Source: Candidatus Omnitrophota bacterium
Lineage (GTDB): Bacteria; Omnitrophota; Gorgyraeia; Zapsychrales; Zapsychraceae
DNA: 64,000 nt
NCBI GenBank assembly: GCA_021108075.1
Contig: JAIORP010000068.1
Coordinates: forward strand, 10,594-74,593
Direction: 5' to 3'
Below are positions 3,378 to 53,813 of this stretch, piece after piece; positions within the stretch are counted from its first letter, which is position 1, and each line of letters opens with the position of its first letter. The notes beneath the pieces are model-generated. The model was not told the DNA's origin, searched no databases, and saw nothing but the letters and a program-made list of their open reading frames with translations. A program made the translations under genes and the position numbers.

Positions 3378-3517
3378 CAGTAAAATCAGATGGGAAAATG
3401 CCATTACCCGAGGCAGTGTTATGTGAACCACTTAGTAAGCTTTTTTAGGTAGCGACGGGGTTGTGTTGTTCATGGGGCACGTAATAGAACTTTTTATAAC
3501 GCTTGACAATTAATTTT

Positions 3518-3907
3518 ATGAGTCCAGGAAAGACAAAACCAAATCTTCTGCTGGTCATTCCTAATGTGCCGGCCAGTTCATGTCTGAATTCTTTAGCCGC
3601 AGGCATTACCCAACCGCTGGGAATGGCCTATGTTGCTAATTTTATTCGACAGAAGGGTTATTCCGTTATGATTCTGGGCAATTGTGTCGATCAATTATCT
3701 ACAGATGAGTTTGCGGAATACCTTCATGTCGTTAATCCTGATATAATTGGCTTCACGGCAACAACGACGACACTCTCATCCGCTGACCGATACGCAAGAA
3801 TATGTAAAGAAGTGGTGGTTAATGATTATCTGTTTTCTGTTTCGGGTAACAAAAATAGATCTTCTTATTCAAAAGGGTGTCATCATCGCCGTCCTGAAGA
3901 AAAATGA
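3518..3907 (+). pseudogene. B12-binding-domain-only fragment of a class-B radical SAM paralog (no radical SAM core follows)
   Basis: Aligns with N-termini of the 13658 and 18527 proteins (PLGMAYVANFIRQKGYSV, IIGFTATTTT). Terminates after about 130 aa. A full-length paralog follows at 4044. Confidence 0.5.
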
Positions 3908-6734: not shown

Positions 6735-7730
6735 ATGGATAAGTATTTTTTAAATATTCGTCGATTTATTTTGTTGTACAATATTTTTATTCGCAGGGTG
6801 CGCTTAAAGGGGCATACTCAAATGTTGAAGTATGCGTTTAAACGTCTTTTTTTAAGACAGGAAATCCCCATGACGATCATGATCGCGTTAACTTATCGCT
6901 GCCAGTGCCGATGCGTGCATTGCTCGGCTTCGGACCTTTCTGATCAAGCGGGAGAGGAATTGACAACCGCAGAATGTCGGGATGTGATTCGTGAAGCGAG
7001 TGAGCGCGGATTTATTAAAGTCGGCATCACGGGTGGAGAGCCTTTATTACGCGATGATATTGTTGAGATTGTACATTTCGCGTACCGAACAGGGATGAGT
7101 GTCTCTATTGATACGAACGGAATCCTTTTGACGGAACAGATGGTCCGTGAATTAAAAGATGCCGGGATTACGAATATCAATGTCAGTTTAGACCATCCGG
7201 ACGAGAAATATCACAATCGTCTGCGCAGATACAAGAACTGTTTTAAACATGCGCTGGAGGGCATCGATCATTGTGTTCAGCAGAGAATTCCCTGTGTTGT
7301 GTCAACGTATATTACGGATCGGTCTTTTGAAAACAATGAGTTGGATAAAATGATTGCTCTGGCAAAAGAGTTAAAATCGACGGCCGTGCGCTGCCTTTTT
7401 CCTATTCATTCAGGGAAATTCAGTCAGAAAAAAAGGTCATTGCTGTCGCCCGTGAATAAACAGAAGTTTTTTGACACTTACGCGGATGGTTCTTTTGTTT
7501 ATTCGGAGAGTCCGATGTTCGATTTTCAGACGGGACAGTTAGAATGTTCCGCTCTAAAGAAATTGTCTGTTTATTTGACAGCCTATGGAGACCTTAAATA
7601 TTGTCATGTTTCAAATAATGTTTTGGGAAATATTCGATCAGAGTCTTTATCCGAAATACTGAACAGGAATGAATATTCTTCCCCTGAGAACCGGATTAAA
7701 TTAAATTGTCAAACGTTTCACGATCAATAG
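6735..7730 (+). CDS. radical SAM enzyme, SPASM/twitch-type (AslB/PqqE-like fold)
   Basis: CQCRCVHC (CxxxCxxC) and GITGGEPLLRDDI. Cys-rich C-terminus. Paralog of 27510 and of the C-terminal half of 8686. Start ambiguous; in-frame alternative at about 6822. Confidence 0.8.
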   Translation: MDKYFLNIRRFILLYNIFIRRVRLKGHTQMLKYAFKRLFLRQEIPMTIMIALTYRCQCRCVHCSASDLSDQAGEELTTAECRDVIREASERGFIKVGITGGEPLLRDDIVEIVHFAYRTGMSVSIDTNGILLTEQMVRELKDAGITNINVSLDHPDEKYHNRLRRYKNCFKHALEGIDHCVQQRIPCVVSTYITDRSFENNELDKMIALAKELKSTAVRCLFPIHSGKFSQKKRSLLSPVNKQKFFDTYADGSFVYSESPMFDFQTGQLECSALKKLSVYLTAYGDLKYCHVSNNVLGNIRSESLSEILNRNEYSSPENRIKLNCQTFHDQ

Positions 7731-7748: not shown

Positions 7749-8588
7749 ATGGTTTACGATAAAAGCAGATCAGCCTCAAAAAAAATCAGTCTGTTGTATT
7801 CTGGCGGATGCGATTCAACTTTGTCTGCGTCCATCCTGGCTAAAGACTTCGAAGAAATTCATCTGGTAACTTTCAAGCATTATGCGACCTGGAATGTCGG
7901 AAGGTCCAGAATAAATGTTCAGAAGTTAAGGGTTGAAAACAAACAGGTCCGATTCATACATGTTTTTTTGAACACTTCCGGGTTGTTTTATAATATTCAG
8001 AAAGGATTTTTTAACGATCGCGCAATGTTGCCCTATTTTCCGTTATATATTTGTGGAGCCTGTAAGCTAGCCATGCATACGGATTTGATTTGTTATAATT
8101 TGGCCCATGATATCACTTTTGCCTCCAGTGGGGCTTCCCACGAAATGAGTATGTTTCCGGCGCAAACCGAGGGAGGGCTGAGCCATCTTGAGAAGTACTA
8201 TGCTGAATATGGCATGCAATTGATGAGTCCCGTCTACCGGAAGAAGAACGTTGATGTTGAGGCTATTGAAAAGGGTCTTCTCGAGCCCCGGCATCTAAAA
8301 AAAAAACATAAAGCAAGCTGGAATAAGTTATCAGATTTATATGTCCCTATAAAGAATGTTATTGATAATACTCAGGGATTTTGTTTTTGGATCGCGGCTG
8401 TTGATATTTATATCGCCCGGGAACAAAAGAAGAGCCGTCTTAGCCGGACACAACAAGTAAGTCGTGTATCAAAATTTTCACAGCAATATTATCAAAAAAA
8501 AATTGATGATATTTGTAGAAAATATATTGAATTAAGTCAAAAGAAGCAGAAGCGCAAACAAATTAATCATACCAAATTCATTGTTTAA
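7749..8588 (+). CDS. PP-loop ATP pyrophosphatase family protein (QueC/LarE-like)
   Basis: N-terminal SGGCDS PP-loop motif. Lys-rich C-terminal tail. Confidence 0.6.
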   Translation: MVYDKSRSASKKISLLYSGGCDSTLSASILAKDFEEIHLVTFKHYATWNVGRSRINVQKLRVENKQVRFIHVFLNTSGLFYNIQKGFFNDRAMLPYFPLYICGACKLAMHTDLICYNLAHDITFASSGASHEMSMFPAQTEGGLSHLEKYYAEYGMQLMSPVYRKKNVDVEAIEKGLLEPRHLKKKHKASWNKLSDLYVPIKNVIDNTQGFCFWIAAVDIYIAREQKKSRLSRTQQVSRVSKFSQQYYQKKIDDICRKYIELSQKKQKRKQINHTKFIV

Positions 8589-8685: not shown

Positions 8686-11259
8686 ATGCATATTGTATTT
8701 GTTCATACCGGACAGGAAAGTCTCGGTCTGGAATATTTATCTGCCGTTTTGAAAATTCATGGACACAAAGTGTCATTGGTCTATGAGCCTCTCATTTTTC
8801 GCTCATTTCGGTTTTATTTCCCTTCTTTGGACCGTCATCCACCACAAACGATCGCACAGCGAGCGTTGGCCGCTGAACCGGACCTGATCTGTTTTTCCAT
8901 TGAATCTGATTATTTCGGTTGGGCATGTCAGGTTGTAAGGGAACTTAAACAATTAAAAGATATCCCCATTCTTCTGGGAGGAATTCATCCAACGTCTGTT
9001 CCGGAAAACGTTATTTCAGAAACATCGGTTGATTATATCTGTCTTGGTGAGGGTGAGGATGCCCTGGTCGAATTGGTTGCCAGTCTTGAAAGAAAAGATG
9101 GCCGAATGGATATTTTAAATATATGGTATTGTCGGCAAGACCGTATTATCCGCAATCCTTTGCGCCCATTAAATGAAAATCTTGACGATTTCCCTTTCCC
9201 GGATAAAGAATTGTTTTACCGGGAATACCCTGGTTTTATCAATGATGTCTATACAATCATCACCGGGAGGGGGTGTTGTAACGCGTGCAGTTATTGTTAC
9301 AATAGCATGCTACAAAAACGTTATGAGGGTCGGGGTCGTTATTTAAGGCGTCGGAGCGTGGAGAATGTTATTGCTGAATTGAAGCACGCTCACCGTGTAT
9401 ATCATTTTAAGCGGGTAACTTTTTGTGATGATGTTTTTACCACCGATCTTTCATGGTTGGAGAGTTTTGTCTCTTTATACAAAAAAGAAATCGGTCTTCC
9501 TTTTTATTGCCAGGTTCACCCATCTTTTGTTGATAAAACCAGGATACAGTTGTTAGCCGACGGAGGGTGTACGGTGGTCAATTATGGTATCCAGACTATT
9601 GATGAAAATTTACGCAAACGCTATTTGCATCGCCAGGGATCCAATCGGGAGATTGTTCAGCACCTTAATGATTTTTATGAAACTAAAATTTTTTTGTTCA
9701 CTAATTTTATTGTCGGATTGCCCCGTCAGGACGAGGAAGAATTAATACGCATTGTTGAATTTTGTTGTTCGCATCCGGCCGGATTTCATGATGTGAATTG
9801 GCTGCGGTATTATCCGGGCACTGATATTGTTTCTATTGCTCAAAGGGAAGGCCTTTTGACTGAACAGGACGTCGAAAGGATTAATGCGTCTCGGGATTAT
9901 CAGCCATATGCCCATGGCGGACATGCCCGCACAAAGCAAAGATCGCAGTTAAGAAATTTGATATTTTTGACCCATATTCTCCCGAAGGGTTTGATCCGCT
10001 GGCTGCTGGAGCGTCAACGGTATCGTTTCTTACCAACATTTAATATGCGAAACATGATTGTTATTCCACGATTATTGTTTATGAAATGGGTTAAGGGCAG
10101 GAAATATCCGTATCCAAATCTTTCTTTATTCGGAAATTTGAAGTATTACTGGCATTGCCTTGTCTCCAGGGTTCGTAAAAAAAATACTCGCAAGAAATTT
10201 CATAGATTAACCGGTTTTAAGGCCCTGGTGCGTCGATTTATGAATATGTTTTATTTGTATAAAATGTTAAACAGGAAGGTATGGGTTCAATCATGCCGGT
10301 ATTTTATTTTTCGTTTTATTTTGCGCAAGAAGATACCGGGAACAGCGATACTGGCTTCAACTTTTCATTGTCAGCTGGATTGTGAATGCTGTTCAGCCGG
10401 GATTTTCAGGCGATATTATCAAGGAGTTGAAGAAATGTCCTTGAAAGAAACGGAAGATAAAATTCGAGAGATAGCTAAGATCGGTATTCCACGGCTCCAT
10501 CTTGCGGGCGGGGAACCGTTGCTAAGAAAAGATATTGTAGATATCGTTAAGGTCAGCTCGGACTGTGGGCTGATTGTTTTTCTGGAAACAAACGGTTTGC
10601 TGCTCACAGAAGAAATGATCCTCCGCCTGAAGTCCTCCGGGATTTCCAGTGTTAATGTGAGCCTGGATAGTGCGGATGCGTTTAAACATAACCGTTTAAG
10701 GACACGCGCGGGAGTCTTTGAACATGTCTGTCAGGTGATTACGCTTTGTGTGAAACACAAGGTGAATTGTATCGTGTCGACCTATGCGACAAAAGAGAAT
10801 ATCTATAATGGTGATCTGAATGCTTTAATTCAGTTATCAAAACGTATGAAATGTTATGGGATTCGGGTGATTGCGCCTCAACCGGCAGGGAATTGGATCC
10901 TGTGTGATGATGTGATTTTAAGCCGGGAAGATAATGCTGCAGTTGAGGCGATGATGCCGATTTTTTTTATGGCCCTTAATCGAACAAAGTTGATCCGCTG
11001 TCCGTTACGGACTGCCTATAAATTGTTCATTTTACCTGACGGTCAGATCGCTCCGTGCGAACATTTGCCGTATATTTTTAAGGATTCAAACGGTATGTCT
11101 CTTGAACGGCTTCCTGAGCTCATTAACCGTTTTGATATGTTTTCAAAAAATTATTATTGTCTTCCTCGGGATAGAGATTTTCGTCAACGATATTATAAAA
11201 AAGGAGTGTCCAGGGATATGTCACCCATATTTTTAGATGCTGACGTTCAAAATGATTAA
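8686..11259 (+). CDS. fusion protein: N-terminal B12-binding radical SAM plus C-terminal SPASM-type radical SAM
   Basis: N-half resembles the 29283 protein (LGLEYLSA, ITGRGCCNACSYCYN). C-half resembles 6735 and 27510 (FHCQLDCECCSAG, LAGGEPLLRKDIVDIV). Confidence 0.85.
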   Translation: MHIVFVHTGQESLGLEYLSAVLKIHGHKVSLVYEPLIFRSFRFYFPSLDRHPPQTIAQRALAAEPDLICFSIESDYFGWACQVVRELKQLKDIPILLGGIHPTSVPENVISETSVDYICLGEGEDALVELVASLERKDGRMDILNIWYCRQDRIIRNPLRPLNENLDDFPFPDKELFYREYPGFINDVYTIITGRGCCNACSYCYNSMLQKRYEGRGRYLRRRSVENVIAELKHAHRVYHFKRVTFCDDVFTTDLSWLESFVSLYKKEIGLPFYCQVHPSFVDKTRIQLLADGGCTVVNYGIQTIDENLRKRYLHRQGSNREIVQHLNDFYETKIFLFTNFIVGLPRQDEEELIRIVEFCCSHPAGFHDVNWLRYYPGTDIVSIAQREGLLTEQDVERINASRDYQPYAHGGHARTKQRSQLRNLIFLTHILPKGLIRWLLERQRYRFLPTFNMRNMIVIPRLLFMKWVKGRKYPYPNLSLFGNLKYYWHCLVSRVRKKNTRKKFHRLTGFKALVRRFMNMFYLYKMLNRKVWVQSCRYFIFRFILRKKIPGTAILASTFHCQLDCECCSAGIFRRYYQGVEEMSLKETEDKIREIAKIGIPRLHLAGGEPLLRKDIVDIVKVSSDCGLIVFLETNGLLLTEEMILRLKSSGISSVNVSLDSADAFKHNRLRTRAGVFEHVCQVITLCVKHKVNCIVSTYATKENIYNGDLNALIQLSKRMKCYGIRVIAPQPAGNWILCDDVILSREDNAAVEAMMPIFFMALNRTKLIRCPLRTAYKLFILPDGQIAPCEHLPYIFKDSNGMSLERLPELINRFDMFSKNYYCLPRDRDFRQRYYKKGVSRDMSPIFLDADVQND

Positions 11260-12313
11260 CATCATTGAAATCAACCGATCAGATTTTGAGACCTCATGTC
11301 CGAAGGACGTTCCTTATTGTTATTCCCCGGTCTGGCTGGATGTATATGCAAATGTGTTTTGTTATCGCCCCAAATATTACCATATTATGAATGACCGTAG
11401 CGTGATAGGTGTTTTTTCTTTTGTGTGCATCAAATCGATGCTTTTTGGCAACCGGATTGTCTCAATGCCTTTATCCGATGAGGGGGGGGTCGTATTATTT
11501 GACCCGTCATCGATATCACTTGAGTTTAAACAGGAGATTGTGGGGCAAGTGAGTCGCCTCTTGAAACAAGAAGCCCGATTACAGAATGTAGCAATCATAG
11601 AAATACGCGGATACAATCCACTTGTGCACGAATATGATGCGGATAAACTTTTTTTGAAAAAGAAGGTATATGTCCGATTTGTTTTAGATACAGGGCGTGA
11701 TTATAATTCGCTTCAGGCAAATTATCAGACTAATATTCATAAGAATTTGAAAAAAGCTCAACAGCACATTGCCGTTGATGAGTGTGTCTCAGTTGCCGCT
11801 ATTCCTGAGATCTATAACATTTATTTGCTTCAGATGAGGCAATTTGGTTCACCACCATTATCGATTGATTATTTTAGTTGTCTGCTCGAATCTCTAGTTG
11901 CTAAAATTTTTTTAGCAAAGAAAACAGGATCAGGGATCGTTGGTTTTTTACTGGTATTTATCTATAATAACCGTATGTATGCTGATATCAACGCGAGTCT
12001 TTTATCCTATAATTCCTGTTTTCCGAAAGTCTTTTTGTTTGATGAAAGCATAAAATGGGCCTGTATGAATGGTATCCGGACATATGATTTCATGCGGACC
12101 AGGACAGGGAGTGGCGTTTATGAACATAAAAAGAAGTGGGGCGGAACGGAAAAGCCGATTTATTATTATTATCTGACGACGAAACAGCAACGCGAGCTCT
12201 TGTTGGATCCTGAACAGTCGCGGTTTGTTTTGCCCAAACGGATTTTACAGCATATGCCGTTAGGCGGCCTTAAGCGGATCGGACCATGGATCCGACGAGA
12301 AGCAGGGAAATAA
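11237..12313 (+). CDS. FemAB-like / GNAT-fold acyl(aminoacyl)transferase family protein
   Basis: Size and motif pattern resemble FemAB-related proteins found in exopolysaccharide loci. Alternative start ATG 11252 overlaps the upstream stop. Confidence 0.5.
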   Translation: MLTFKMINIIEINRSDFETSCPKDVPYCYSPVWLDVYANVFCYRPKYYHIMNDRSVIGVFSFVCIKSMLFGNRIVSMPLSDEGGVVLFDPSSISLEFKQEIVGQVSRLLKQEARLQNVAIIEIRGYNPLVHEYDADKLFLKKKVYVRFVLDTGRDYNSLQANYQTNIHKNLKKAQQHIAVDECVSVAAIPEIYNIYLLQMRQFGSPPLSIDYFSCLLESLVAKIFLAKKTGSGIVGFLLVFIYNNRMYADINASLLSYNSCFPKVFLFDESIKWACMNGIRTYDFMRTRTGSGVYEHKKKWGGTEKPIYYYYLTTKQQRELLLDPEQSRFVLPKRILQHMPLGGLKRIGPWIRREAGK

Positions 12314-12315
12314 AT

Positions 12316-13644
12316 ATGCGAGAAAAATTGTTTTATATGATGGCGAATTTGTGCTCGCGCGGTTTTGAAGATCGCATTCAACAGGGGGAGAGCCGTTATT
12401 CTAAACAAGAAATAGAATGTCTTCAGTTTAAGAAATTTATTAAATTATATCGATATGCCTTTGGGCATATACCGTTTTATAAAAAAAAGTATGAGCGTGC
12501 AGGGTTATCCCTTTCGTCTTTAAGCTGTTATGCGGATATCAAGAGAGTTCCCTGTTTATCAAGGCAAGAATTGATTGAACAACAAGAGCTGCTGCACCGT
12601 CGTCAGGGTGTCACGTTCCTGGAGAGTGGAGGAACAACCGGTGCGCGTGTGCATACGCAATTAAATAAAAGCATAGCAGTCAAACGGTACGAGATGCTTT
12701 TACAGATACTCTATCGGGTTGGGTGGCAAATATCTATGCCCAGCGCGGCCTTCTATTCGAATGAATATCGTTATAGCACAAATTTCTTCCCCTTGTTGCG
12801 ACGGGGCCAGTTGAACAAGTTGATTTTTGATTTTATCCAGCAATATGTGATTTACGGTTTTTTTCATAATCGGAAAAATATTTATTTTGGATCAGAACTG
12901 TTTGTGCAAAACAATGCGGACCGGTATTTGAGGCCTGTATGGAATAAGAAACCGGTCTTGTTGATTGCTCGTCCGGATGTCATAACTGTCTTGATAAAAC
13001 AAGGCAAAATAAAGGGGGTTGATTTTCGTCCGATAAAGAGCATTGTGACGGTCGGAAACATGTTAACAGAATCCACACGGTCATTGATCGAGGAGGTTTT
13101 TTCGGCAACAGTCTATAATATGTATGCTTCAACGGAATTAGGCTATATCGGTGTCAGTTGTCCTGGGTCGGGGGTTTCTGTTCATGTCGATGATGAGAAT
13201 TACATCGTTGAAGTGGCAGATAATGATCAAAATGAAATTGTGGTTACCGATTTTAATAATTATATGCTACCCTTAATAAGGTATAAATCATCAGATGTCG
13301 GCGAGTATGCACCCCGAAAATGTTTCTGTGGACGGTCCGGTCAGGTGTTATGTCTCCGGGGCCGGACGCGCAGATTTATTCTTTCTGATACGGAAAATAA
13401 AATTTATGAATATGATGTCATTGAATTTTTTGAGCAATTTAAGGACATCATTAATTATCAAATAGTAAGAAGGCCGGATCAACAATTATCAATGAACATC
13501 GGGGGGGGGCAATCAAAGGGGGATAAAGATCAGATTCTTGTCGATTTTTGTGACAGTTTCAAGATTGATCCCCGGAGAGTTCTCCTCGAGAGTGATGGGG
13601 AGCTGATACGGAGCCCATCCGGTAAAGTTTGTTGTCTCGTATGA
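12316..13644 (+). CDS. PaaK-like adenylate-forming enzyme (phenylacetate-CoA ligase / F390 synthetase family)
   Basis: ESGGTTGA nucleotide-binding motif, with family-like N- and C-terminal regions. ATG preceded by AGGGAAA. Confidence 0.65.
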   Translation: MREKLFYMMANLCSRGFEDRIQQGESRYSKQEIECLQFKKFIKLYRYAFGHIPFYKKKYERAGLSLSSLSCYADIKRVPCLSRQELIEQQELLHRRQGVTFLESGGTTGARVHTQLNKSIAVKRYEMLLQILYRVGWQISMPSAAFYSNEYRYSTNFFPLLRRGQLNKLIFDFIQQYVIYGFFHNRKNIYFGSELFVQNNADRYLRPVWNKKPVLLIARPDVITVLIKQGKIKGVDFRPIKSIVTVGNMLTESTRSLIEEVFSATVYNMYASTELGYIGVSCPGSGVSVHVDDENYIVEVADNDQNEIVVTDFNNYMLPLIRYKSSDVGEYAPRKCFCGRSGQVLCLRGRTRRFILSDTENKIYEYDVIEFFEQFKDIINYQIVRRPDQQLSMNIGGGQSKGDKDQILVDFCDSFKIDPRRVLLESDGELIRSPSGKVCCLV

Positions 13645-27509: not shown

Positions 27510-28550
27510 TTGAAGTTGAAGAGTTTGCAGGGTTTTTGTGGAAGAACGTATTTGACGGCTAAAATATTTTCTAAACTCGTTTTACCTCATTTGTATGGGA
27601 AAGTCATCAGTAACACAGTATCCCGCTGTTTAATAATTTATAAACCATCGTCTGCTGTCTTAGGCCTGACTTATCGCTGCCAGTGCCATTGCGTGCATTG
27701 TTCGGCTGGTTCCTATCGGTATGAAGTGAGTCAAGATCTGTCAACAACAGAATGGATGGGTTTACTGGATGCTATCCATCAGTTAGGTGTTCCCCGGATT
27801 AATCTGACCGGGGGTGAAGCCCTATTAAGAGAAGACATTTTTGATATTATTGCCTATGCGGCAAAAAAAATTGTCGTGATTCTGGAAAGCAACGGCCTGT
27901 TGATTTCTGACGAGGTGGCCTTAAAACTCAAAAAAGCGAAGGTATCTTGCGTGGCCGTCAGTATCGATAGCGTTGACGGGCCGGGGCATGATTCCTTCAG
28001 AGGCGTCCAAGGCTGCGTTGATAACGCCATCAAGGGGATAGAGCATCTGAATAAGGCGAGGATCCCCTTCATGGCGACATATATCCGTGCTGAGAACGCG
28101 CGTGTTGATTATATTCAAGGGTTCATGGATTTAGCGAAAAAGATGAACGTTATGGCCGTAAGGATTTTGCCCCCGCGCCCTGCCGGAAATTTTTCCTGTC
28201 ATGTGGATGCGTTGCTGAGCAAGGAAAATGAAACGCTCATCCGGGAAAACACGGATCTCTTTATGTTTTATTTTAATGGCATGCCGGCGCCACGTATGTG
28301 CGGAACTTTTTCTAAAGCAACGTTTTACATCTCTCCTTATGGGGACATTCAGCTCTGCCCCTACCTGTCCATTTCTTTCGGTCATATCAAGGACGGATCC
28401 TTGCGTTCTTTATTGGAGAAAATGTGGTCGCACGCCATTTTTCAAGACGATGGAACAGACTGCTTTGTCCTGAACGCGTCTTTTCGCAAGCGATATTTGG
28501 ATGGTTGTGTCAGTTATCCCTGTGATGACACAATATTGATGAATGAGTAA
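27510..28550 (+). CDS. radical SAM enzyme, SPASM/twitch-type
   Basis: CQCHCVHC and LTGGEALLREDIFDI. Cys-rich C-terminus. Paralog of 6735. TTG start 11 nt after AAGGAG. Confidence 0.8.
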   Translation: MKLKSLQGFCGRTYLTAKIFSKLVLPHLYGKVISNTVSRCLIIYKPSSAVLGLTYRCQCHCVHCSAGSYRYEVSQDLSTTEWMGLLDAIHQLGVPRINLTGGEALLREDIFDIIAYAAKKIVVILESNGLLISDEVALKLKKAKVSCVAVSIDSVDGPGHDSFRGVQGCVDNAIKGIEHLNKARIPFMATYIRAENARVDYIQGFMDLAKKMNVMAVRILPPRPAGNFSCHVDALLSKENETLIRENTDLFMFYFNGMPAPRMCGTFSKATFYISPYGDIQLCPYLSISFGHIKDGSLRSLLEKMWSHAIFQDDGTDCFVLNASFRKRYLDGCVSYPCDDTILMNE

Positions 28551-28589
28551 AAGGGCCCTTTTTTACGTTTAAGACGGAAGAGAATGGAT

Positions 28590-29261
28590 GCGTATGGATC
28601 AATTTAATATAAATACAAATTCATCTGAAAAATATCCTGGTCTCGTCCAATCAGTGATGAAACGGGGGCATGAAATTGCCAGCTACGGCATGGACATCAG
28701 TTGGTGTCTAAAATGACTCAAAAAGAATTTATTTCGGATGTCACACCGTCCTTAGGTATTTTACGGAACATGACAGGAAAAAAGATATGGGGGTATCGGG
28801 CACCAACCTGGTCGATCGCAAAGGATGTCGATTGGACCATGCGGACCCTGAAATCCATCGGGCTGAAATATGACTCCAGTATTTACCCGATCAGTAAAAA
28901 TATTTTTACCGGGCATAAAAAACAACGGTTTGCGCATGATATTATTAAAGATTTCAAGGAGTTTCCTCCTGCAACGTTTCAATTCGGGGGGGGCAGTTTT
29001 CCTTTGTCTGGAGGCACGTTCTTGCGCTATTGGCCCGTTTCTTTTGTTCGCCGTAACATTGAGAAGATGAATCATGCCCGGCAGGCGGCCATGATATATT
29101 TTTATCCCTGGGAATTTTATAAAGATATACCGCAGAAGAAGATTCCCGCGTGGAAATACGCCGTCCAGTGGGGGAATGTGCGATGTGTGAGGCCTAAAGT
29201 CGAGTGCCTGCTACAGAATTTTAAGTTTTTATCGATAAGGGATGTGTTAAATTTGGTTTAA
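28590..29261 (+). pseudogene. polysaccharide deacetylase pseudogene (N-terminally deleted, frameshifted at about 28690)
   Basis: KYPGLVQSVMKRGHEIASYG in one frame stops after a few codons. Homology to the 19986 protein resumes in another frame (MTQKEFISDV...GLKYDSS). Confidence 0.65.
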
Positions 29262-29282: not shown

Positions 29283-30782
29283 ATGCGTGTAGGATTTCTA
29301 AACCCGGGGTATGAACATTTAGGCCTGGAATATTTGTCGGCGTCATTGCGCCGGGCAGGCCATACCACACAGTTGTTTTTAGACCCGATCTTATTCAATG
29401 AAAGCGGATTTATCCAGCGCCCCTTACTGGCCAAATGGTTTTCCTTTGAAAAACACATCATCCGTTCCATTCAAGAATATCAGCCCGACCTGTTGTGCCT
29501 GTCTGTGCTCTCGGATAATTATCAATGGGCCTGCTCGTGGGCGGAAACGATTAATTCGGTTTATTCCGTTCCTATTGTCATCGGAGGTATTCATCCCAGT
29601 TCTGTTCCTGATCATGTCATTCAAAATCAATGGATTGATTATCTTTGCGTGGGCGAGGGGGAGGAGGCCCTGGTTGATCTGGTCCGGTGTTTAGAGGCAA
29701 AACAGAACCCTTCCCGGATAAAAAATATTTGGACCGTCCAGGCGGGTCAGGTTCACCGCAATGAGGTGCGTCCGTTGATATCGGATATCAACACCCTTCC
29801 CTATCCGGACAAAGCCCTGTTTTATTCCCAACTGCCGGCCTTGAAACGTATTTATTCCATCAGCACGTCTCGTGGTTGTCCCTTCACATGCAGTTATTGT
29901 TGCAATAATGTCTGGAAATCCATCTATCGCGCCCGGAAAAGTCTGTTGCGCCGCCGTTCGGTTGCCAACGTGATCGATGAGTTGTCAGACGCCAAAAGAA
30001 GGTACGTTCCAAAGTCGATCGCTTTTTTGGACGAAGTCTTTAACATGGAAAAGGAATGGCTGTTAGATTTTTTTAAAGAGTACCGGGCTAAAATTGATTT
30101 GCCTTTTTCCTGTTTTGTTTTTCCTGATTATTTGGATGAGGAAATTATTCTGGAATTAAAGAAAAGCGGTTGCATCAAGGTTCAGATGGGTGTGCAGTTG
30201 ATCGATGAAGAAAAACGCAACCGTTTGTTAAACCGCAGGTCCTCGAACGCGAAGATTCAGACGGCCATCGCGTTGTGCAAGCAGACCGGTATTTTTGTGG
30301 CCTGTGATGTCATCTGGGGGCTGCCGGACACAACCGAAGCGGATCTGTTCCAGGCCGTTGACTTTTTTTGTCAGACGACGCCTGACCATATTGAAATTTT
30401 TTGGCTGCGTTATTATCCGAAGACCAGCCTGACGGAATGGGCCAGAAAGAATGGCTATCTTACAGCGGCGGATTATCAGGCCATCAATGAAGGTGTGGTG
30501 TCGACCGGGATTGTGCGCGGGAAAAACAAGGCCACAAAGCTGGAAAAGAAAATTTTTGTTCTGTTGTATTTATGGCCGTTATTGCCAGAGAAACTCCGGA
30601 TGTATTTGGCTAAAAAATCTTTCTACCGGTTTCTCCCGGCAGGGGTGTCTATTTTAGCGCTTTATATATTGAAAAGGCTTGTGAAAAGGTCTCGGTATGA
30701 TATAAATACGGAGCAGACAATGTCCAGATATGTGTACTTTATGTTTTTGAAATTTAAATTAAAGGTAAAATTGCAAAGATAA
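29283..30782 (+). CDS. B12-binding (class B) radical SAM enzyme
   Basis: LGLEYLSASL and STSRGCPFTCSYCCN. Homologous to the N-half of 8686. Confidence 0.9.
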   Translation: MRVGFLNPGYEHLGLEYLSASLRRAGHTTQLFLDPILFNESGFIQRPLLAKWFSFEKHIIRSIQEYQPDLLCLSVLSDNYQWACSWAETINSVYSVPIVIGGIHPSSVPDHVIQNQWIDYLCVGEGEEALVDLVRCLEAKQNPSRIKNIWTVQAGQVHRNEVRPLISDINTLPYPDKALFYSQLPALKRIYSISTSRGCPFTCSYCCNNVWKSIYRARKSLLRRRSVANVIDELSDAKRRYVPKSIAFLDEVFNMEKEWLLDFFKEYRAKIDLPFSCFVFPDYLDEEIILELKKSGCIKVQMGVQLIDEEKRNRLLNRRSSNAKIQTAIALCKQTGIFVACDVIWGLPDTTEADLFQAVDFFCQTTPDHIEIFWLRYYPKTSLTEWARKNGYLTAADYQAINEGVVSTGIVRGKNKATKLEKKIFVLLYLWPLLPEKLRMYLAKKSFYRFLPAGVSILALYILKRLVKRSRYDINTEQTMSRYVYFMFLKFKLKVKLQR

Positions 30783-36671: not shown

Positions 36672-39600
36672 ATGTGGAATTTTATTCAAAATAAGAAATA
36701 TTATGTTTATAAGCAAATCACTGCGTTATGCATTGCTGTATCCTTTTTTGGATCAACAATATTCCCGGTTCCTTTAGCTCAAGCTCAGAGTGTGCCTGCA
36801 ACGGTTGGTCTGGATCTTCCAACCCCTGGGACAATGGTAACATTAAGCCCTGGATTTATACCCGCCGTTATTAAAGGCGTAAAAATTTTTCCTAATCAAC
36901 CTCTAAGATTTGATTTTATCGTTGACCCGGGAGACTCCGGGTTAAAAGGGACTGGTTTAAAAAGTGAAGCCAACAAACTCATTAAATATTTTCTCGCGGC
37001 AATAACTGTTCCCGAAGATGATATGTGGGTTAATCTTTCCCCATACGAGAAAGACAGAATAATTGCGGAAGGTTTTGGGAAGACTGAGATGGGGCGAGAT
37101 CTACTCGCGCAGGACTATATCTTAAAACAAATCACAGCATCCCTTATGTTTCCTGAAGAAGAAATTGGAAATGAATTCTGGGATAAGGTCTATCAAAAGG
37201 CGGTTGATTTATATGGCACGTCAGAGATCCCGGTTAATACATTTAATAAGGTGTGGATTATTCCAGAAAAAGCTATTGTTTATGAAAATGGCGATACTGT
37301 CTTTGTCTCAGAAAGTCATTTAAAGGTAATGCTCGAGGAGGATTATCTCGCGCTTGAGTATAATTCATTGAATAGTGAAAATGGTACTGACCAGATTAAT
37401 AAAAATGACGTGGAGCAACCGGATGATGTTTCCTCCTCTATCATAAGAGAAATTATTATTCCCGAATTAGAAAAAGAAGTGAATACAGGAAAGAATTTCG
37501 CGAATTTAAGACAGATTTTTAATTCTGTGATTTTGGCTACCTGGTTCAAACGGAATCTTAAAGAAAGTTTGTTAGGCAAAGTTTACATGGATCAAAACAA
37601 GGTCGAGGGTGTTAACACAGAAGATCGTCAGGTTAACGAAAAAATTTATCAGCAATATTTAGAGGCTTTCAAAGTTGGTGTATATGATTTTATTAAGGAA
37701 GATTATGACACAACAACACAAGAAGTTATTCCTCGAAAATATTTTTCAGGAGGAGCTCTTTTAGCTTTAAAAAATGCCTATAGGAAAAGGGACACGTCGG
37801 AAGGGGTTGCTGTAAGTGAAGACAGTATTGTTGCAGGTGTCCAGTTGGTTGCCGCCCCTCATAGTTATGCTAATAGAGCGGTTAGAGAGACAGGTGAGCT
37901 TCCGGATGTTTCTAATTTAGACGATTATAGGAACAATTTACCACAGGAAGTAATGGATGGCGTAAGACGATTTTTGCGTAGTGAGAAAGGATTAGAAGTA
38001 GACGAGAAGTTTATGCGTAATATTCCCATAATTTCAAGACCTGGATATTTATCAAAGTACGGTGAATTTGGACATGTTGGTCTGGGGGAGATGTATGGTG
38101 AAATAGTGATTTATCTGGATTCGGAATCTTTTGAAAATATAACGAGATTAGCCCATGAAATTGCTGAGGCCTTTAATTTCGAATCAGGTAGAAGGGACCT
38201 TTATGTGTCCAGTGAATTTATTACACAGCTCAGAGAATTTGTGGGAGAGTATGCTACAGAGTTAGAGAGCATTGGCCGCAATGGTCAGGACGCTATACAG
38301 AAATTTGAAGCTCATCTTAAAAATACTCCCGGAAAATCATTCGAGCCATGGATGATGCGTTGGTGGATCTGGGCTACTTCAGAAGGAAAAGAATTTGCTG
38401 ATCGTTCACATGATCTATCTCCCTCACTTGCTGAGGAATACGAAATAGCCGCTCAGGCGGGAAAGCTTCCAACGGGATTAAGGTTCACACCAACCCAATT
38501 AGATCAAGTCGATCGTAATGTAGCGGCAGGTAATAAAAGCCGCCAATTTTTAACACTGGATGATGTAAAAATCAGGGACAAACGGGTTCTAATTAGACTT
38601 GATATAAACGCGCCTGTTAGTGATGGAAAAATCAAACCAACGGAAAGGATTACAGCTTCATCAGAAACGATTAGAGAGGCGGCTGAAAGTGGAGCTAAAG
38701 TCGCTATTATCGCTCATCAAGGACGGCCGGGAGATGATGATTACATGGAATCGTTGGATCAGCACGCACAATTACTTTCAGAAAAGATAGGTCGCCCCGT
38801 TAGAGCAATAAATGATTTATACGGAGAAGAAGCACAGGAAGCGATCCGATCATTACAAAGTGGTGAAGTAATCATTCTGGGCAATGTTAGGCCAAAAGAA
38901 AAAGATCCAGAATTTGTGGCAAATCTTGAACCTTTATTTGACTTTTTTATATTTGATGGTTTTTCTGTCGCTCACAGGGATACAAATAGTGTTACAGGAT
39001 TTAAAAATATTCCAAACGTTGCCGGACGATTAATGGAAAGAGAGTTAGACGGAAATCAACGGTTTTTGACTGCCCTTGAGCATCCTTACGTGGAGTTATT
39101 GGGGGGGGCTAAGATTAGTGATCACGTAGACGCGTTAGATTATGGTTTAGAGCAGGGACTTATTGATCGTGTGCTTACCGGAGGCATGTTAGGTCAGTTG
39201 TTATTGCTTATTGATGGTTACCAATTAGGTGAGCCTACTATGAAGGTTTTGCGTGAGCAGGATGTGGATGAATCCCGACCGGAAGGTCTTTTAAGTTTAA
39301 TTCCACGAATTAGAGATATTTATGAAAGACACCGGGACAAATTTGAGTCACCCTCTGATCTCGCTTATGAAGATGCTGACGGTGAGAGACAGGAAATCGC
39401 GATTACTGATTTAGGTGAGGATGGCGCACCATTTGTCATTGGTGACAATGGGACAGAAACTGCTAACCGATACGCGGATATTTTAAGAGAAGCGAAGACA
39501 GGATTTGTGAAAGGTCCTCAGGGCAATTACAAGAATGATAATTTCAAAAAAAGTTCAGAGATTACTTTTGGAGCACTCGCGGATTCGGGGGCTTTCTGGA

Positions 39601-40043
39601 TGACAGGTGGTGGTGACACTGATCAATTAATTTCTGATTTAAAGCTTCAACCAAGCCATCGCACACTCGCGGGTGGCGCTTTTTTAAAATTTAAATCGGG
39701 AAAAGAACTTCCGGCGATAAGTCGTTTAGCTGAATCGAGAAAGCAACAAGGCGTTGGAGAAACAGATGGAGGTGACCGCGCGGTTTTAACTTCCGTGGCC
39801 AGTCCCGGTGGTATTGATTTTAATCCTAAAAATTTTGATATTCAATCTGAAGGGAAAGGGATGGATATCGACTTTGCCTTTGATCCGGCAAATTTTGAGA
39901 CAATGCCCGTAAATGGATTTATACCCGTTATTTTTCAAATCTCTCCGATTTCAAATTTCCCTTCATTATTGTTGGGTGTATCAGATCAAGAAGAAAAGCA
40001 GCAACTCACTCAACTCAAAAATTATACCAATTCCATCAAATAA
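36672..40043 (+). CDS. giant signal-peptide protein with paralog-shared N-cap and C-tail and an embedded full-length phosphoglycerate kinase-like domain
   Basis: Signal peptide ...PVPLAQAQS. The N-cap (about aa 40-330) is shared with 40150. About aa 630-1030 align end to end with PGK: KRVLIRLDINAPV..GKI, AHQGRPG, FDGFSVAHR, LLGGAKISD, TGGM, GGGDT, AGGAFL. Confidence 0.85.
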   Translation: MWNFIQNKKYYVYKQITALCIAVSFFGSTIFPVPLAQAQSVPATVGLDLPTPGTMVTLSPGFIPAVIKGVKIFPNQPLRFDFIVDPGDSGLKGTGLKSEANKLIKYFLAAITVPEDDMWVNLSPYEKDRIIAEGFGKTEMGRDLLAQDYILKQITASLMFPEEEIGNEFWDKVYQKAVDLYGTSEIPVNTFNKVWIIPEKAIVYENGDTVFVSESHLKVMLEEDYLALEYNSLNSENGTDQINKNDVEQPDDVSSSIIREIIIPELEKEVNTGKNFANLRQIFNSVILATWFKRNLKESLLGKVYMDQNKVEGVNTEDRQVNEKIYQQYLEAFKVGVYDFIKEDYDTTTQEVIPRKYFSGGALLALKNAYRKRDTSEGVAVSEDSIVAGVQLVAAPHSYANRAVRETGELPDVSNLDDYRNNLPQEVMDGVRRFLRSEKGLEVDEKFMRNIPIISRPGYLSKYGEFGHVGLGEMYGEIVIYLDSESFENITRLAHEIAEAFNFESGRRDLYVSSEFITQLREFVGEYATELESIGRNGQDAIQKFEAHLKNTPGKSFEPWMMRWWIWATSEGKEFADRSHDLSPSLAEEYEIAAQAGKLPTGLRFTPTQLDQVDRNVAAGNKSRQFLTLDDVKIRDKRVLIRLDINAPVSDGKIKPTERITASSETIREAAESGAKVAIIAHQGRPGDDDYMESLDQHAQLLSEKIGRPVRAINDLYGEEAQEAIRSLQSGEVIILGNVRPKEKDPEFVANLEPLFDFFIFDGFSVAHRDTNSVTGFKNIPNVAGRLMERELDGNQRFLTALEHPYVELLGGAKISDHVDALDYGLEQGLIDRVLTGGMLGQLLLLIDGYQLGEPTMKVLREQDVDESRPEGLLSLIPRIRDIYERHRDKFESPSDLAYEDADGERQEIAITDLGEDGAPFVIGDNGTETANRYADILREAKTGFVKGPQGNYKNDNFKKSSEITFGALADSGAFWMTGGGDTDQLISDLKLQPSHRTLAGGAFLKFKSGKELPAISRLAESRKQQGVGETDGGDRAVLTSVASPGGIDFNPKNFDIQSEGKGMDIDFAFDPANFETMPVNGFIPVIFQISPISNFPSLLLGVSDQEEKQQLTQLKNYTNSIK

Positions 40044-40132
40044 TGACCAAAGTCATAATGATATTCTCGCTAAATCGTCGAGAAAAGCAGAATTGGGTTT
40101 GGTCATTATTTGATGGAATTGGTATTAGTATA
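40021..40132. repeat. MITE/REP-like repeat, full palindromic copy E, overlapping the stop of the 36672 gene
   Basis: ATACCAATTCCATCAAATAATGACCAAA...GTCGAGAAAAGCAGAATT...TTTGGTCATTATTTGATGGAATTGGTAT is a perfect 28-bp terminal inverted repeat. Confidence 0.85.
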
Positions 40133-40149
40133 AATTGTGAGGATTTTTT

Positions 40150-43100
40150 GTGCGCGCAAAGAAACCGAACCGTTGTTTTGCTTTTTTAATGATCCTGGCT
40201 TTCGGGGTCAATGGCCTCATGCCGTATGCCTACGCGCGAACACCGCTCAGCTTACCTGAACCCGGGGTGATGGTTTCGACCAGTCCGGCGTTTGTGCCGG
40301 TCTTAATCCGGGGCATGACCCTCCATCCCAAAGACCCGTTCCGCCTGGATTTTATTATGGATAGCGGGAATACCGGCCTAGAAAATGACGCGATGAAAGA
40401 AGAGTCACAAAAACTGATCAAATATTTTCTCGCCTCAATGACAATCCCGCAAAACCATTTATGGGTCAACCTTTCGCCTTATGAAGGCGATAAAATCATT
40501 CCACCCTCTTTGGGCCGGACCATGCTGGGCCGTGACCTGCTGGCTCAGGATTATCTCCTGAAACAATTAACCGCGACGCTGATGTACCCGGAAGAAGGAT
40601 TGGGCCAGGAATTTTGGGAAAGGATTTACCGCCAGGCAAAGGAGAAATTCGGAACAACCGACCTGCCGGTGAACACGTTTAACAAGGTTTGGATTTTGCC
40701 GCAGAGCGCGGATGTCTATGAGCATGGCCGGACGGTTTATATTGTGGACAGCCGACTGAAGGTCATGCTGGACAGCGATTACCAGGCCATGATGACAGGC
40801 CATGAGACAATTAAAAATGACGCGATGATGGAATTAGGGGAAACGATGATCCGTGAGGTTATTCTTCCCGAGATTGAAAGAGAAGTGAATGAAGGCAAGA
40901 ATTTCGCGCCCTTACGGCAGATTTACCATTCCTTGATTTTAGCGAAGTGGTATAAAGAAACGATCAAGGAAAGCATCCTGTCTCTGTCTTACGTGGACCA
41001 GCATAAAGTGAACGGCATTGAATGGAACGACCCGGCGTTTAAGGACCGGATCTATGCCCGATATATGCGGGCGTATCAAAAAGGTGTTTTTAATTATATC
41101 AAAGAAGATTATGACCGCTTAAGCCAGGAATTGATCCCCCGCAAATATTTTTCCGGCGGTTTTCAGGACCGGGCCATCGCCTTCAACCGGCCGCGGATTG
41201 CCAGAGAAGATATCAAACCCGTCGGTGATTATGCCATGTTGTCTGTGTCTTTGGACCAGGTGCCCTTGATTACCGTCAGGCAGGCGGGCTTGACAGGGGG
41301 GTATAAAGTCTCAGGGGCCATAGAACTGGATGAGCAAAAACAAATGCTTTCGTTTGAGGGACTGCGCGATGAGAAGTCTGTTTCTGAAAGGGTCGAACTG
41401 CTCATTCAAAAACGCTTGACAAAAAGAGACGTGCTGGACAAAATCAGCCGTTACGCCGGGCATGAAATGATTGACGCGATGATCGCCTGGTTTATGGATG
41501 AGTCGACCATGAACGATATTGTTATTCTTCAACCGAACGCCCTGGGTGTTCACACGGTTTTTGACGTGCGCGTGCTGGCTGTTTCAGAAAATTTTGAAGA
41601 CGAAGGTCTTGTTTTTCTGCATGAAATCGGCCTGGCCATGGGACAAACCGCGGATTTAAACACGGTCCTGGAGGTCGTTGATGATAAAACCACAACACAT
41701 CCGCTCAAATTATCACCCGATAAAATTGTTCAGGACTATCTCGAGGATAAAGCGTGGTACGACCGGCATGTGCAGGTGACAGACAAGCAGGGCGTGAAAC
41801 TGCACTATGCTTTGCGGGCATTGTTCCGTGAACAGTTTTTTCTGGACGATATGGACCTGACGCACCGGATCAAAGTGGCTTTTGAATTTGCTGATGAGAA
41901 GTTGCGCGCGGATGGCGAAGATGTGGACCAGGAAAAACTTTTACAGGAATTAACGGATAAATACAATCGAATCAGCGCGGCCAAATGGGGAGAGAATCAA
42001 AGACAATCCTCGTGGTTTTTAAGGCTGCGGGATGCTAAAGAACGGGTTCTCGCGGCAAGAGACATTTCCTCCTCGCGGGTCGTTGATGAGATCCTCAGTT
42101 TTTATCTCAAGGCCACAGATCCTCAAGAGCCGGTTGAGCGCTATGAACCTTTTAATGCCTTTATCTCGACGACGTTTCAAGGGCGGAAACGGGAAGTGCT
42201 GGTGCCTGTTGTTAAGGAATTATATGGGATGATCATGTATGACAGCGTCTATGTCGACCAGAGAGTCCTATTAATATCGTTGATGTCAAATATTATGGCG
42301 GGTATATTTGAACTGGACCAGTCCATCGTGTCTGGGTTTGAAGTGCTTCTCTTGCGGGATATCCGGCGGTTTGTTTCCGATGAGGTTTTTGTCGCGCCCC
42401 ATCAAGTTAAGGGTATTGATCATTTAGAACGGTATTTTAAAATTGTGCCCGGAAAAGAGTCGTTTCGGACAGTCGTTCAAAAGGCGGCCTTTAGATTGCT
42501 GGGACGACAGCCGTCTGTATTGAGCGTGCCGCAACCGAGGTTGTATTTCCGTGAAGATTTTTTTAAAAAAGTCAGGGAGCAAAGAGATGTGGCTATAAAA
42601 AAACACTTGATCCGGGCGCATAAACAGGCGCATTTGTTTAGAAACGCTATTCGGTCTTTGAGCAACAGTCTGGTCGCGCGTGAGCGGGTCGGCACCCGGC
42701 GGCGCAAATTTACGCTCAGGGAAAACGCGGGTCTGCACATGGATGGATTGTTGCGTCAATTTCAGGAGACGAAAGACGCGGGGAAAAAGGTGTTTTTGGC
42801 AGAGCTTTTATTCTCGTGGTCGGGTTCAGGGCATGAATTTTGGAACAAAGGTAATGCCGGGACCTATCTGGAAGACCTGATGAAATTATTGCCTCAAACA
42901 AAAACAGTCATGCAGAAAAGATCTCTCTTGCAGCAGGCCTTAGGGTTGCCGGTGATGACGATGGAACGGTCCTTGCGGCAGCGCTTTGTCGACTTTGTGT
43001 CCGGGGAACTGGCCGGATTGTTTTCTAAGGTGACGGAATTGGGCGTCGACATTGACCAGGATTTTCAGGACCTGGACGAACGTTATCCGGATGGTTATGA

Positions 43101-52655: not shown

Positions 52656-53669
52656 ATGGCTGAAGATAAAAATCAAAAGAAAGATGAAGTTGTAAAAACC
52701 GGAAATCCGCTAGTGTTTATAAGTCATGACACTAGAGATGCTAAACTCGCCGAAGCCTTTAGCGGACTTCTAAAAAGTGTTAGTGCTGGTGTTTTGAAAT
52801 CGTTCAGAACATCAGATAGAAAAGGGAATCAAGGAATTGAATACGGAGTCGAATGGTATCCCGAAATCATAAAGAATATTCAAAACGCTTCTGACGTTGT
52901 TTGCCTTCTTACAGAGAGAAGTATAAATAGGCCTTGGATTCTATTTGAAGCAGGAATGGCAAAAGGGAAGCTTGAAACTCCTATTTTAGGTGTAGCGTTA
53001 GGCATATCTTTGAAAGACGCATCATCTGGTCCGTTTGCTCAATTTCAGAATTGTGGAGATGATGAAGAATCTTTAACTAAATTAGTCTTTCAATTGGTAG
53101 ATCGTATCCCCAATTCAGAACCAGACGAAGAAACGATAAAGTTTCAGGTTGGCAAATTCAAAGAATCTATTGCAAAAATATTAAAAGCCAAGAACAAAGA
53201 CGCAAAACCTGAATCTTCAGAATTATCAAGTAGAGATAATTCATCGGCAAAACTCTTTGAAGAAATTAAGGTTATGTTTCAAGATCTACCGTCAAGAATT
53301 GAAAGTAATATGAATCCTGAATTACGTAGCAGAAAAAGACGTCGCTTTCATCCAATGATGATGGAAGAAATGATGCATATGAGTAAAAACAGACATATTG
53401 GAATAATGATGGCGCTTAGTCTTTTCAAAGAACCGATGCCTTGGCTGTATGAAATTGGCATGGAAACCATTAGGACGATTAAAACAGGAAAAACGAAAGC
53501 AGAAAAGAAAAGGGCATTTTCAGAGTTCCAAGAAATAGTTGAAATGTCCACTCGTCATCCAATGATGCGTGAATTTTTTATGGATTCAAAAGATGACTAT
53601 ATGCTTTTTAGAGAATTGCCTGAGGTGCTATCAGAAAGTTTTTATAGATTAATGATTGAAGAAAAATAA
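52656..53669 (+). CDS. TIR-domain protein with Met/His-rich C-terminal domain of unknown function
   Basis: N-terminal VFISHDTRDAKLAEAF...VVCLLTERSINRPWILFEAG fits the bacterial TIR (TIR_2-like) pattern. The C-terminal 200 aa have no recognisable family. Low GC. Confidence 0.65.
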   Translation: MAEDKNQKKDEVVKTGNPLVFISHDTRDAKLAEAFSGLLKSVSAGVLKSFRTSDRKGNQGIEYGVEWYPEIIKNIQNASDVVCLLTERSINRPWILFEAGMAKGKLETPILGVALGISLKDASSGPFAQFQNCGDDEESLTKLVFQLVDRIPNSEPDEETIKFQVGKFKESIAKILKAKNKDAKPESSELSSRDNSSAKLFEEIKVMFQDLPSRIESNMNPELRSRKRRRFHPMMMEEMMHMSKNRHIGIMMALSLFKEPMPWLYEIGMETIRTIKTGKTKAEKKRAFSEFQEIVEMSTRHPMMREFFMDSKDDYMLFRELPEVLSESFYRLMIEEK

Positions 53670-53813
53670 AAAAACATAACAAATCACTACACTGGATTTT
53701 TACTCCGCTGCGCTCCGTAAAAACCAGTGAGTTCAAGCGTTGGGCCTCATTAACGATGGCCTGCATAGAACATCCGAACCACAATCTTGGCACATGATGC
53801 GAGAATGAATTAA

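Follow-up and report, generated by a model that had tools for sequence, protein, structure and literature searches.

Orthologous fused and split forms of a dual-core radical SAM protein from an Omnitrophota gene cluster

The textbook pair of radical S-adenosylmethionine (rSAM) enzymes that occurs both fused and split is FbiC, the F0 synthase of coenzyme F420, in which CofG and CofH are joined; in other lineages the two are encoded by separate genes, and they belong to one reaction sequence. The phrase 'two radical SAM domains' is found in this FbiC context in PMC11917521. Two further enzymes, the AhbD-like SPASM/twitch rSAM protein Hbs and the B12 rSAM methylase Hgm, have neighbouring genes and act on one and the same tetraether lipid (10.1101/2023.10.20.563219). 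The subject here is a gene at positions 8686-11259 on the plus strand (+) of a stretch of Candidatus Omnitrophota DNA (contig JAIORP010000068.1 of assembly GCA_021108075.1), which is called the window below and was analysed at its full length of 64,000 nucleotides (nt); genes in it are named by their first position. The 8686 product, of 857 amino acids (aa), carries a class-B rSAM module, with its B12 domain, head-to-tail with a MoaA/AhbD/BlsE-like rSAM module, an architecture drawn from the open reading frame (ORF), Pfam, a 48-sequence alignment and an AlphaFold2 model. We found no account in the literature of a fusion between a B12-type and a twitch-type rSAM enzyme, of its family or of its cassette, and nothing specific on dual-core rSAM fusions of this sort or on clusters combining rSAM, deacetylase and FemAB genes. 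We consider it probable that 8686 is a bifunctional enzyme formed from joined operon genes, the halves of which act in consecutive steps on one, likely sugar-type, intermediate.

Pfam finds two separate Radical_SAM (PF04055) stretches in the protein (E 8e-43), and both modules have the CX3CX2C motif as well as profile and fold matches to the superfamily. Ahead of the first core lies a Rossmann-like B12-binding domain (aa 12-131; 8719-9078, +), scored by PF02310 at 62.6 bits against a cut-off of 32.1 and matched by Foldseek to TsrM, MgmA, CysS, OxsB and TokK, and it is this N-terminal position in front of an rSAM core that marks the N half as class B. The first cluster motif, CCNACSYC (C197-x3-C201-x2-C204, aa 197-204, preceded by G196; 9274-9297, +), is invariant in 48/48 aligned members. 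The second is CQLDCECC (C562-x3-C566-x2-C569, aa 562-569; 10369-10392, +), and the invariant columns of the alignment comprise both triads, G608-G609-E610 of the second module, and C772, C791 and C825. At aa 564 (10375-10377) the window protein has Leu (CQLDC) where 98% of the family has Cys (CQCxC), that is, a near-invariant extra motif cysteine. The AlphaFold2 model, built on the same alignment, has a mean predicted local distance difference test score (pLDDT) of 89.9 and a predicted template modelling score (pTM) of 0.65. Its N half resembles TsrM, MgmA, AprD4, CysS, OxsB and TokK in Foldseek comparisons, its C half BlsE, SkfB, viperin, SuiB, PqqE and MoaA, and in sequence searches of solved structures AprD4 comes first with the N half, BlsE with the C half. 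None of the named equivalogs HpnJ, BchE, ladderane B12 rSAM, AhbD, NirJ, MoaA and PqqE reaches its NCBIfam cut-off for 8686, the best scores being those of the ladderane B12 rSAM (103, cut-off 360), AhbD (102, cut-off 500) and HpnJ (93, cut-off 578).

The preliminary description of this DNA had thus been right about the 857-aa protein, its B12 domain, its two complete cores and both of their motifs; its naming of the second core as SPASM-type has to be given up. That label, with seven Cys and two auxiliary clusters, was rejected for the C half, which has no match to PF13186 (Pfam SPASM) and in which the conserved cysteines after the core are limited to C772, C791 and C825 (10999-11160, +). As there are three invariant downstream Cys instead of seven, a single auxiliary cluster is predicted, and the C half fits a reduced, twitch-like auxiliary domain, not a full SPASM one, at least by its cysteine pattern. 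The three cysteines go together with the structural likeness to BlsE, MoaA and SkfB. An alignment of the C half with the window proteins 6735 and 27510 shows the identical reduced pattern in all three, and of the latter two 6735 passes the SPASM profile weakly (24.8 bits) and 27510 falls below the cut-off (17.2 vs 21.5).

The fusion in 8686 is natural and conserved, as had been proposed, and its standing as something other than an assembly artefact is confirmed. A search of protein databases brought up 44 clusters with lengths of 837-881 aa and 39-59% identity to 8686, mostly from metagenome-assembled genomes (MAGs) of Elusimicrobia and Omnitrophica, along with four more distant fused proteins (P0050-P0053, 34-35% identity; P and L numbers are our handles for proteins and loci), and both CX3CX2C triads are kept in every full-length fused homologue (~48). 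An error of sequencing or assembly, or a missed frameshift, would mean that the genome really holds two genes, and it has to be taken seriously to the extent that the source is a MAG and that a run of eight A (A8; 10177-10184, +; codons R-K-K-N, about aa 497-500) sits exactly at the joint, which in the alignment falls on the overlapping stop and start of the split orthologues described below. One A gained or lost in 10177-10184 would end the N product at 506-507 aa; in this MAG a single homopolymer call thus decides whether the frame is fused. The A8 run is a possible slippage hotspot or a possible point of assembly error. The identical 857-aa protein is on record, however, from a Candidatus Omnitrophica MAG on three contigs (NCBI, ENA, Logan), the ~48 fused homologues come out of many independent assemblies, and a relic of the stop/start overlap is absent from the 8686 joint. 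P0002/L005, the nearest relative with 59% identity, is fused as well and has no homopolymer at its joint. For the lineage, then, the fusion is genuine, and we regard an artefact as extremely improbable.

Elsewhere the same two enzymes are found as separate genes. The best stand-alone matches to the two halves share contigs, P0045 (499 aa, 57% to the N half) being paired with P0121 (346 aa, 51% to the C half), and P0046 (497 aa) with P0122 (339 aa), the locus tags of the latter pair being consecutive. Split pairs are adjacent ORFs in different frames, with stop and start overlapping by 1-4 nt (TAATG in L003; ATGA in L001, L002 and L022; 4 nt in L017 and L018), and the protein alignment places a short, variable, basic linker of the fused proteins where the split forms have this stop/start. 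Because the split genes overlap out of frame, a single indel is enough in either direction. The split pairs are flanked as in the window, by a 6735-like rSAM gene and usually a PP-loop gene upstream and by a FemAB-like and then an AMP (adenosine monophosphate)-ligase-like gene downstream, and N-to-C order and direct adjacency are kept in every orthologous locus seen. Clustering at 90% identity gives 44 fused clusters against about five split ones, a ratio that pools the full-length search, the C-half search (in which the fused proteins of the full-length search did not reappear) and an exhaustive C-half search.

Neighbour-joining (NJ) trees with bootstraps were built for the N halves and the C halves separately. 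All N-half orthologues, fused and split, fall into one clade (N_A, 99% bootstrap), and the C-half orthologues form another (C_A, 94%). The split L003 joins the window protein and L005 in one group, at 98% in the N tree and 98% in the C tree, and the split L001 and L017 pairs branch between this group and a large fused Elusimicrobia clade. That the two trees agree indicates that the halves were inherited together, and judging from the branching the state has changed between fused and split at least twice in N_A/C_A history. Whether fusion or fission is derived, a point for which phylogeny had been suggested, comes out as ambiguous on the supported nodes, parsimony counting at least two fusions against at least three fissions. 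The N_A and C_A clades each hold fused and split members at the same syntenic site, which is the Rosetta-stone pattern. The appeal to that pattern can therefore stand, with its basis moved: true orthologues elsewhere are fused and split, and on the trees these orthologous pairs are better Rosetta-stone evidence than the pair of window genes, 27510 and 29283, first put forward.

This in-window pair had been described as mirroring the fusion, that is, as a duplicated module holding the same two enzymes as separate genes interrupted by a deacetylase pseudogene. Some of the data do point that way. The B12-rSAM gene 29283 (29283-30782, +) is the closest N-half paralogue in the window, with 38% identity over 472 aa and 329 bits, against at most 112 bits for 13658, 18527 and 4044; 27510 (27510-28550, +) is a C-type rSAM gene by Pfam, with 31.6% identity and 148 bits to the C half; and the two lie 733 bp apart with a real pseudogene in between. 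The C half is marginally nearer to 6735 (6735-7730, +; 32.1%, 165 bits), a C-type rSAM gene upstream of the fusion that matches both Pfam rSAM and SPASM, and 6735 and 27510 are equally far from each other (30.7% identity). Pairwise alignment thus bears out the proposed parallel for the N half, which is clearly closest to 29283 and not to 4044, and fails to do so for the C half, where the other paralogue named as a possible confounder, 6735, comes slightly ahead. In the NJ analysis the grouping of C_A with 27510 has 0% bootstrap, and 29283 and 6735 belong to orthogroups of their own (N_29283, bootstrap 100%, distinct from N_A; C_6735, bootstrap 100%, 8 related loci). At group level N_A is nearest to the clade of B12-rSAM partners of 27510-like genes (380 bits, vs 281-286 bits for N_29283), and C_A to the stand-alone C genes of L006-type loci (213-224 bits, vs 137-145 bits for C_27510). 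A simple pair-duplication history was rejected, since group similarity and trees show partner swapping; the deep branching among N-type and C-type orthogroups, with NJ bootstraps of 0-49%, was not used.

The neighbours of the two genes in other genomes tell against the mirror as well. Members of N_29283 reside together with the fusion or the split pair in L001, L004, L005, L012, L019 and L023, where they adjoin an amine oxidase, a short-chain dehydrogenase/reductase (SDR) or a deacetylase and not a 27510-like gene, and in L001, L004, L005, L012 and L083 the 29283 orthologues are not adjacent to 27510-like genes. The 27510 orthogroup (C_27510) comprises 34 orthologous clusters with 46-64% identity, all of ~345 aa and none fused; in L083, L084, L085 and L007 a B12-rSAM gene comes 10-385 bp downstream of the 27510 orthologue. 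These partners are 48-55% identical among themselves and make up an orthogroup of their own, and in the window they match the N half of 8686 best (375-428 bits), not 29283 (327-352 bits); no orthologue of them is present in the window, so that 27510 there lacks its usual downstream partner. Distinct orthogroups, other conserved neighbours and the lack of a specific link to the C half argue that the fusion has no duplicated, split counterpart in 27510 and 29283, and the mirror, largely refuted, strikes us as very unlikely. It is a useful warning that paralogues within one window can mislead, the true counterpart having surfaced only in other genomes.

The pseudogene itself is real. It is a frameshifted, 5'-truncated polysaccharide deacetylase gene (28582-29261, +), recognised by tblastn against the intact paralogue 19986 and matching TIGR03006 at positions 86-271 only: the ORF 28701-29261 corresponds to aa 97-281 of 19986 (55% identity), the equivalent of aa 61-96 precedes it in another frame, and of the first ~60 residues nothing is left. 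Directly next to the 29283-type gene there is a deacetylase gene both in L001 (upstream) and in L083 (downstream), and given this conserved adjacency the pseudogene is most readily explained as the decayed form of a gene that normally accompanies 29283, and not as the interruption of a pair. The order in the window, with 27510 preceding the pseudogene and 29283, suggests rearrangement and decay in that part of the cluster.

Partnership between N-type and C-type enzymes is not limited to the N_A/C_A lineage. A second fused type (P0050-53; loci L006, L016 and L026) combines an N-type domain with a 6735-like C domain, and in the same three loci a C_A-like gene stands directly before another N-type gene, with FemAB-like and ligase genes next in line; the 27510 family, as noted, has its own adjacent B12-rSAM partner in four loci. 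The exhaustive C-half search returned 77 representatives at E up to 1e-30, the best of which include proteins with architectures of the types glycosyltransferase family 2 (GT2)+rSAM, GT2+2 rSAM, 2-3 rSAM cores, and B12-rSAM+methyltransferase+rSAM. GT2-rSAM fusions include P0351, P0361 and P0392. Multi-rSAM polypeptides are, to go by these architectures, a recurring theme in the lineages concerned. The multi-domain relatives observed are P0080, P0299, P0301, P0341, P0351, P0361, P0392, P0398 and P0400, with arrangements such as GT2+2 rSAM+2 SPASM and a protein of 1365 aa with the order rSAM+B12-rSAM+methyltransferase+rSAM.

The wider N-type family (75 GTDB loci) extends through Omnitrophota, Planctomycetes, Thermodesulfobacteriota, CPR (candidate phyla radiation) bacteria, DPANN archaea and Methanosarcinales, often with several copies in tandem, seven at most. 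Four to seven 29283-like B12-rSAM genes stand in a row in L029, L036, L039, L042, L046, L049 and L056 (Omnitrophota, Planctomycetes); most of these arrays have no C-type rSAM gene within 10 kb, L039 alone having a weak 6735-like match (82 bits).

It might be argued from all this that the joining of the two genes was neutral, a single indel having produced a read-through between operon neighbours whose products work independently in the same cluster on different intermediates, with no functional meaning to the fusion. Fused and split forms do interleave in the tree, the joint is a short, variable, basic linker, one homopolymer slip re-splits the gene, and the many different multi-rSAM fusions among the relatives make fusing seem easy in these lineages. 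A neutral history would nevertheless have to accommodate the retention of N-to-C order and adjacency at all orthologous loci seen, the predominance of the fused form (44 vs ~5 clusters), and the recurrence of independent N/C adjacencies and of a second fused type, and it seems to us decidedly unlikely. These observations suggest instead that the two enzymes act in one pathway, a pathway which is probably one of sugar tailoring.

The genes around 8686 bear on what that pathway might be. Its conserved cassette has the order 6735-like rSAM, PP-loop ATPase, N and C modules, FemAB-like, AMP-ligase-like. In the window the PP-loop ATPase-like gene (7749-8588, +; DUF7411/QueC-like) lies directly upstream of the N and C modules, with synteny in L003, L005, L009 and L019; a FemAB-like gene (11237-12313, +; Acetyltransf_6), assigned by profile match, lies directly downstream, and next comes a gene for an AMP-forming, F390-synthetase/PaaK-like ligase (12286-13644, +; NCBIfam match), both again in conserved synteny. 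Nine genes with ten rSAM cores are packed between 4 and 31 kb of the window, i.e. in 27 kb (4044, 6735, 8686 with two cores, 13658, 16129, 17162, 18527, 27510 and 29283), and interspersed with them are an HpnA-like SDR, the PP-loop ATPase, the FemAB-like and AMP-ligase-like genes, a methyltransferase, a polysaccharide deacetylase, a flavin adenine dinucleotide (FAD)-dependent amine oxidase, the GT-C (PMT_2) glycosyltransferase 30925 and a GDSL hydrolase. The products of 30925 and of the conserved gene 21287 are polytopic membrane proteins. Related loci have a comparable density of rSAM domains and carry DegT aminotransferase, GT2, GT4 and GT28 genes.

From this context (deacetylase, SDR, FemAB-like acyl or aminoacyl transferase, AMP-ligase, PP-loop ATPase, FAD oxidase, methyltransferase, GT-C and polytopic membrane proteins) a link to glycans is favoured, and the nearest solved relatives of the two halves, BlsE (C half) and AprD4 (N half), are sugar-acting enzymes and are counted toward it; the direct fusions of GT2 domains to C-module relatives give a sugar substrate independent support. 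So far as the gene content can indicate, the substrate would most likely be no peptide but an amino-sugar, glycan or glycolipid unit associated with the membrane. The pair could instead tailor a membrane lipid, in the manner of Hbs and Hgm, or a ribosomal peptide. The best NCBIfam matches include the ladderane-lipid B12 rSAM, HpnJ, AhbD and maturases of ribosomally synthesized and post-translationally modified peptides (RiPPs), none of them anywhere near its cut-off; the solved relatives of the C half include GDGT-MAS, helices near the joint are basic and amphipathic, and the clustered Hbs and Hgm genes set a precedent for action on one lipid (10.1101/2023.10.20.563219). Against this, the cluster showed no recognisable gene of Tes/Mss-like, lipid-synthesis or precursor-peptide type, the company is of deacetylase, SDR, FemAB-like, AMP-ligase, GT-C, DegT aminotransferase and GT2/GT4 genes, and the relatives include GT2-rSAM fusions. 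A lipid or peptide substrate accordingly appears unlikely.

The following scheme is proposed for the bifunctional enzyme. Two adjacent, translationally coupled operon genes would have been joined at their overlapping stop/start into one ORF. The upstream one (aa 1 to ~500) supplies a class-B rSAM enzyme with a cobalamin-type Rossmann domain, and the downstream one (~aa 505-857) a MoaA/AhbD/BlsE-like rSAM enzyme with a putative single three-cysteine, twitch-like auxiliary site, each half presumably retaining its own [4Fe-4S]/SAM site. In a first step the N half might carry out a cobalamin-dependent methylation or rearrangement, and in a second the C half an oxidation, decarboxylation or C-C bond formation driven by H-abstraction; fusion would then provide 1:1 stoichiometry and hand-over of the intermediate. 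Architecture, conservation, the orthologous fused and split states, co-inheritance and the recurrent N/C adjacency are direct observations, from which we infer cooperation and chemistry.

Several points weigh against this interpretation. The reading frame of 8686 runs through the A8 homopolymer, and fused and split states switch easily, just as they would under neutral fusion. At most loci of the wider N-type family a C-type rSAM gene is lacking within 10 kb, by which the N/C partnership is specific to this type of cluster. The pTM of 0.65 fixes no definite interface between the N and C halves. To our knowledge, AprD4 carries the same B12-type domain yet does not use cobalamin; cobalamin use by the N half, predicted from its domain, is not certain. 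Finally, no NCBIfam curated cut-off was reached by any of the 20 cluster genes scanned, so substrate and chemistry are guesses.

Enzymes of the rSAM superfamily with unassigned function make up a very large share of the genomes of uncultured bacteria, and data on their partners are a rare computational handle. What is offered here is a testable pairing of a B12-type with a twitch-type enzyme, fused in most relatives, translationally coupled in the rest and set in a conserved cassette; the split orthologues P0045+P0121 and P0046+P0122 are natural controls for channelling of the intermediate, and the GT2-rSAM fusions, taken with the neighbouring deacetylase, FemAB-like and ligase genes, direct the search for a substrate towards modified amino-sugars or glycolipids. 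More tentatively, and as a possibility that we would not yet bet on, the fusion may be the core of an undescribed, rSAM-rich pathway for an envelope glycan or glycolipid common to Elusimicrobia and Omnitrophica, in which B12-type and twitch-type enzymes form obligate pairs, whether fused, overlapped or adjacent, that pass a reactive sugar-derived intermediate directly from one to the other. If that were true, the same pairing logic would extend to polypeptides with three rSAM cores and to the GT2-rSAM fusions.

Other features of the window may be recorded briefly. Just upstream of 4044 an orphan ORF of 134 aa (3503-3907) contains no more than the initial part of a B12-binding domain, with 30% identity to aa 9-99 of 13658 and is probably a truncated remnant. 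A serpin ORF at 71-847 covers only Pfam positions 116-370 and may be 5'-truncated, since the window sequence upstream of it is too short for the missing N-terminal part. Two large neighbouring proteins encoded at 36672-44934 have a common N-terminal region of ~320 aa with 52% identity and one N-terminal hydrophobic segment each; the first (1123 aa) contains a complete phosphoglycerate kinase domain at aa 629-1011, and the second (1594 aa) has no Pfam match. A DDE_3 (IS630-like) transposase gene (46160-47167) lies between the side of the biosynthetic cluster and a GC-rich patch at 52656-58003 (0.51 vs ~0.40 elsewhere), a probable defence island with genes for a TIR-domain protein (52656-53669), HamA (53814-54641) and an overlapping DEAD/ResIII helicase of 1121 aa (54638-58003); HamA and the helicase (53814-58003) look like a Hachiman-type pair.

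Two described systems with partly similar gene content were considered for the cluster as a whole and rejected. In Elusimicrobia many rSAM genes have been noted beside NifH-like "group VI" paralogues (10.1101/765248); a link to these loci finds no support within +/-10 kb, no ORF of the NifH P-loop type being present in the window or in 82 loci. The accessory genes of XrtA/PEP-CTERM exopolysaccharide systems provide the best models for the cluster's deacetylase (TIGR03006) and FemAB-like gene (TIGR03019), with scores short of the cut-offs (234.6 vs 276.2 and 130.2 vs 260.35, respectively), and no exosortase domain was found in any window ORF scanned.

At the level of the single enzymes the two halves have familiar counterparts. 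The class-B enzymes TsrM, TokK, CysS, OxsB and MgmA and the dehydratase AprD4 are like the N half in combining a B12 Rossmann domain with an rSAM barrel (Foldseek E 5e-20 to 6e-14, with identities of only 14-18%), and differ in that none has a second rSAM core. BlsE, MoaA, AhbD/NirJ, PqqE and SkfB are like the C half in having a short N-terminal barrel with CX3CX2C and, after it, an auxiliary domain that carries Cys, BlsE being its best solved match (E 1.4e-12) and AhbD its best NCBIfam match (102 bits); from the SPASM/twitch enzymes the C half differs in its three conserved auxiliary Cys, in having no PF13186 match and in scoring far below the equivalog cut-offs. Hbs and Hgm bring together the same two kinds of enzyme and are likened to 8686 by gene layout; they differ in being separate genes with a lipid substrate, and their Tes/Mss context is absent here. 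FbiC resembles 8686 in having two complete rSAM cores in one polypeptide, while it is without a B12 domain or an auxiliary-cluster domain and belongs to another pathway, and neither CofG nor CofH is among the 25 NCBIfam matches listed for 8686. Set beside these systems, 8686 is a dual-core rSAM fusion of two known domain classes.

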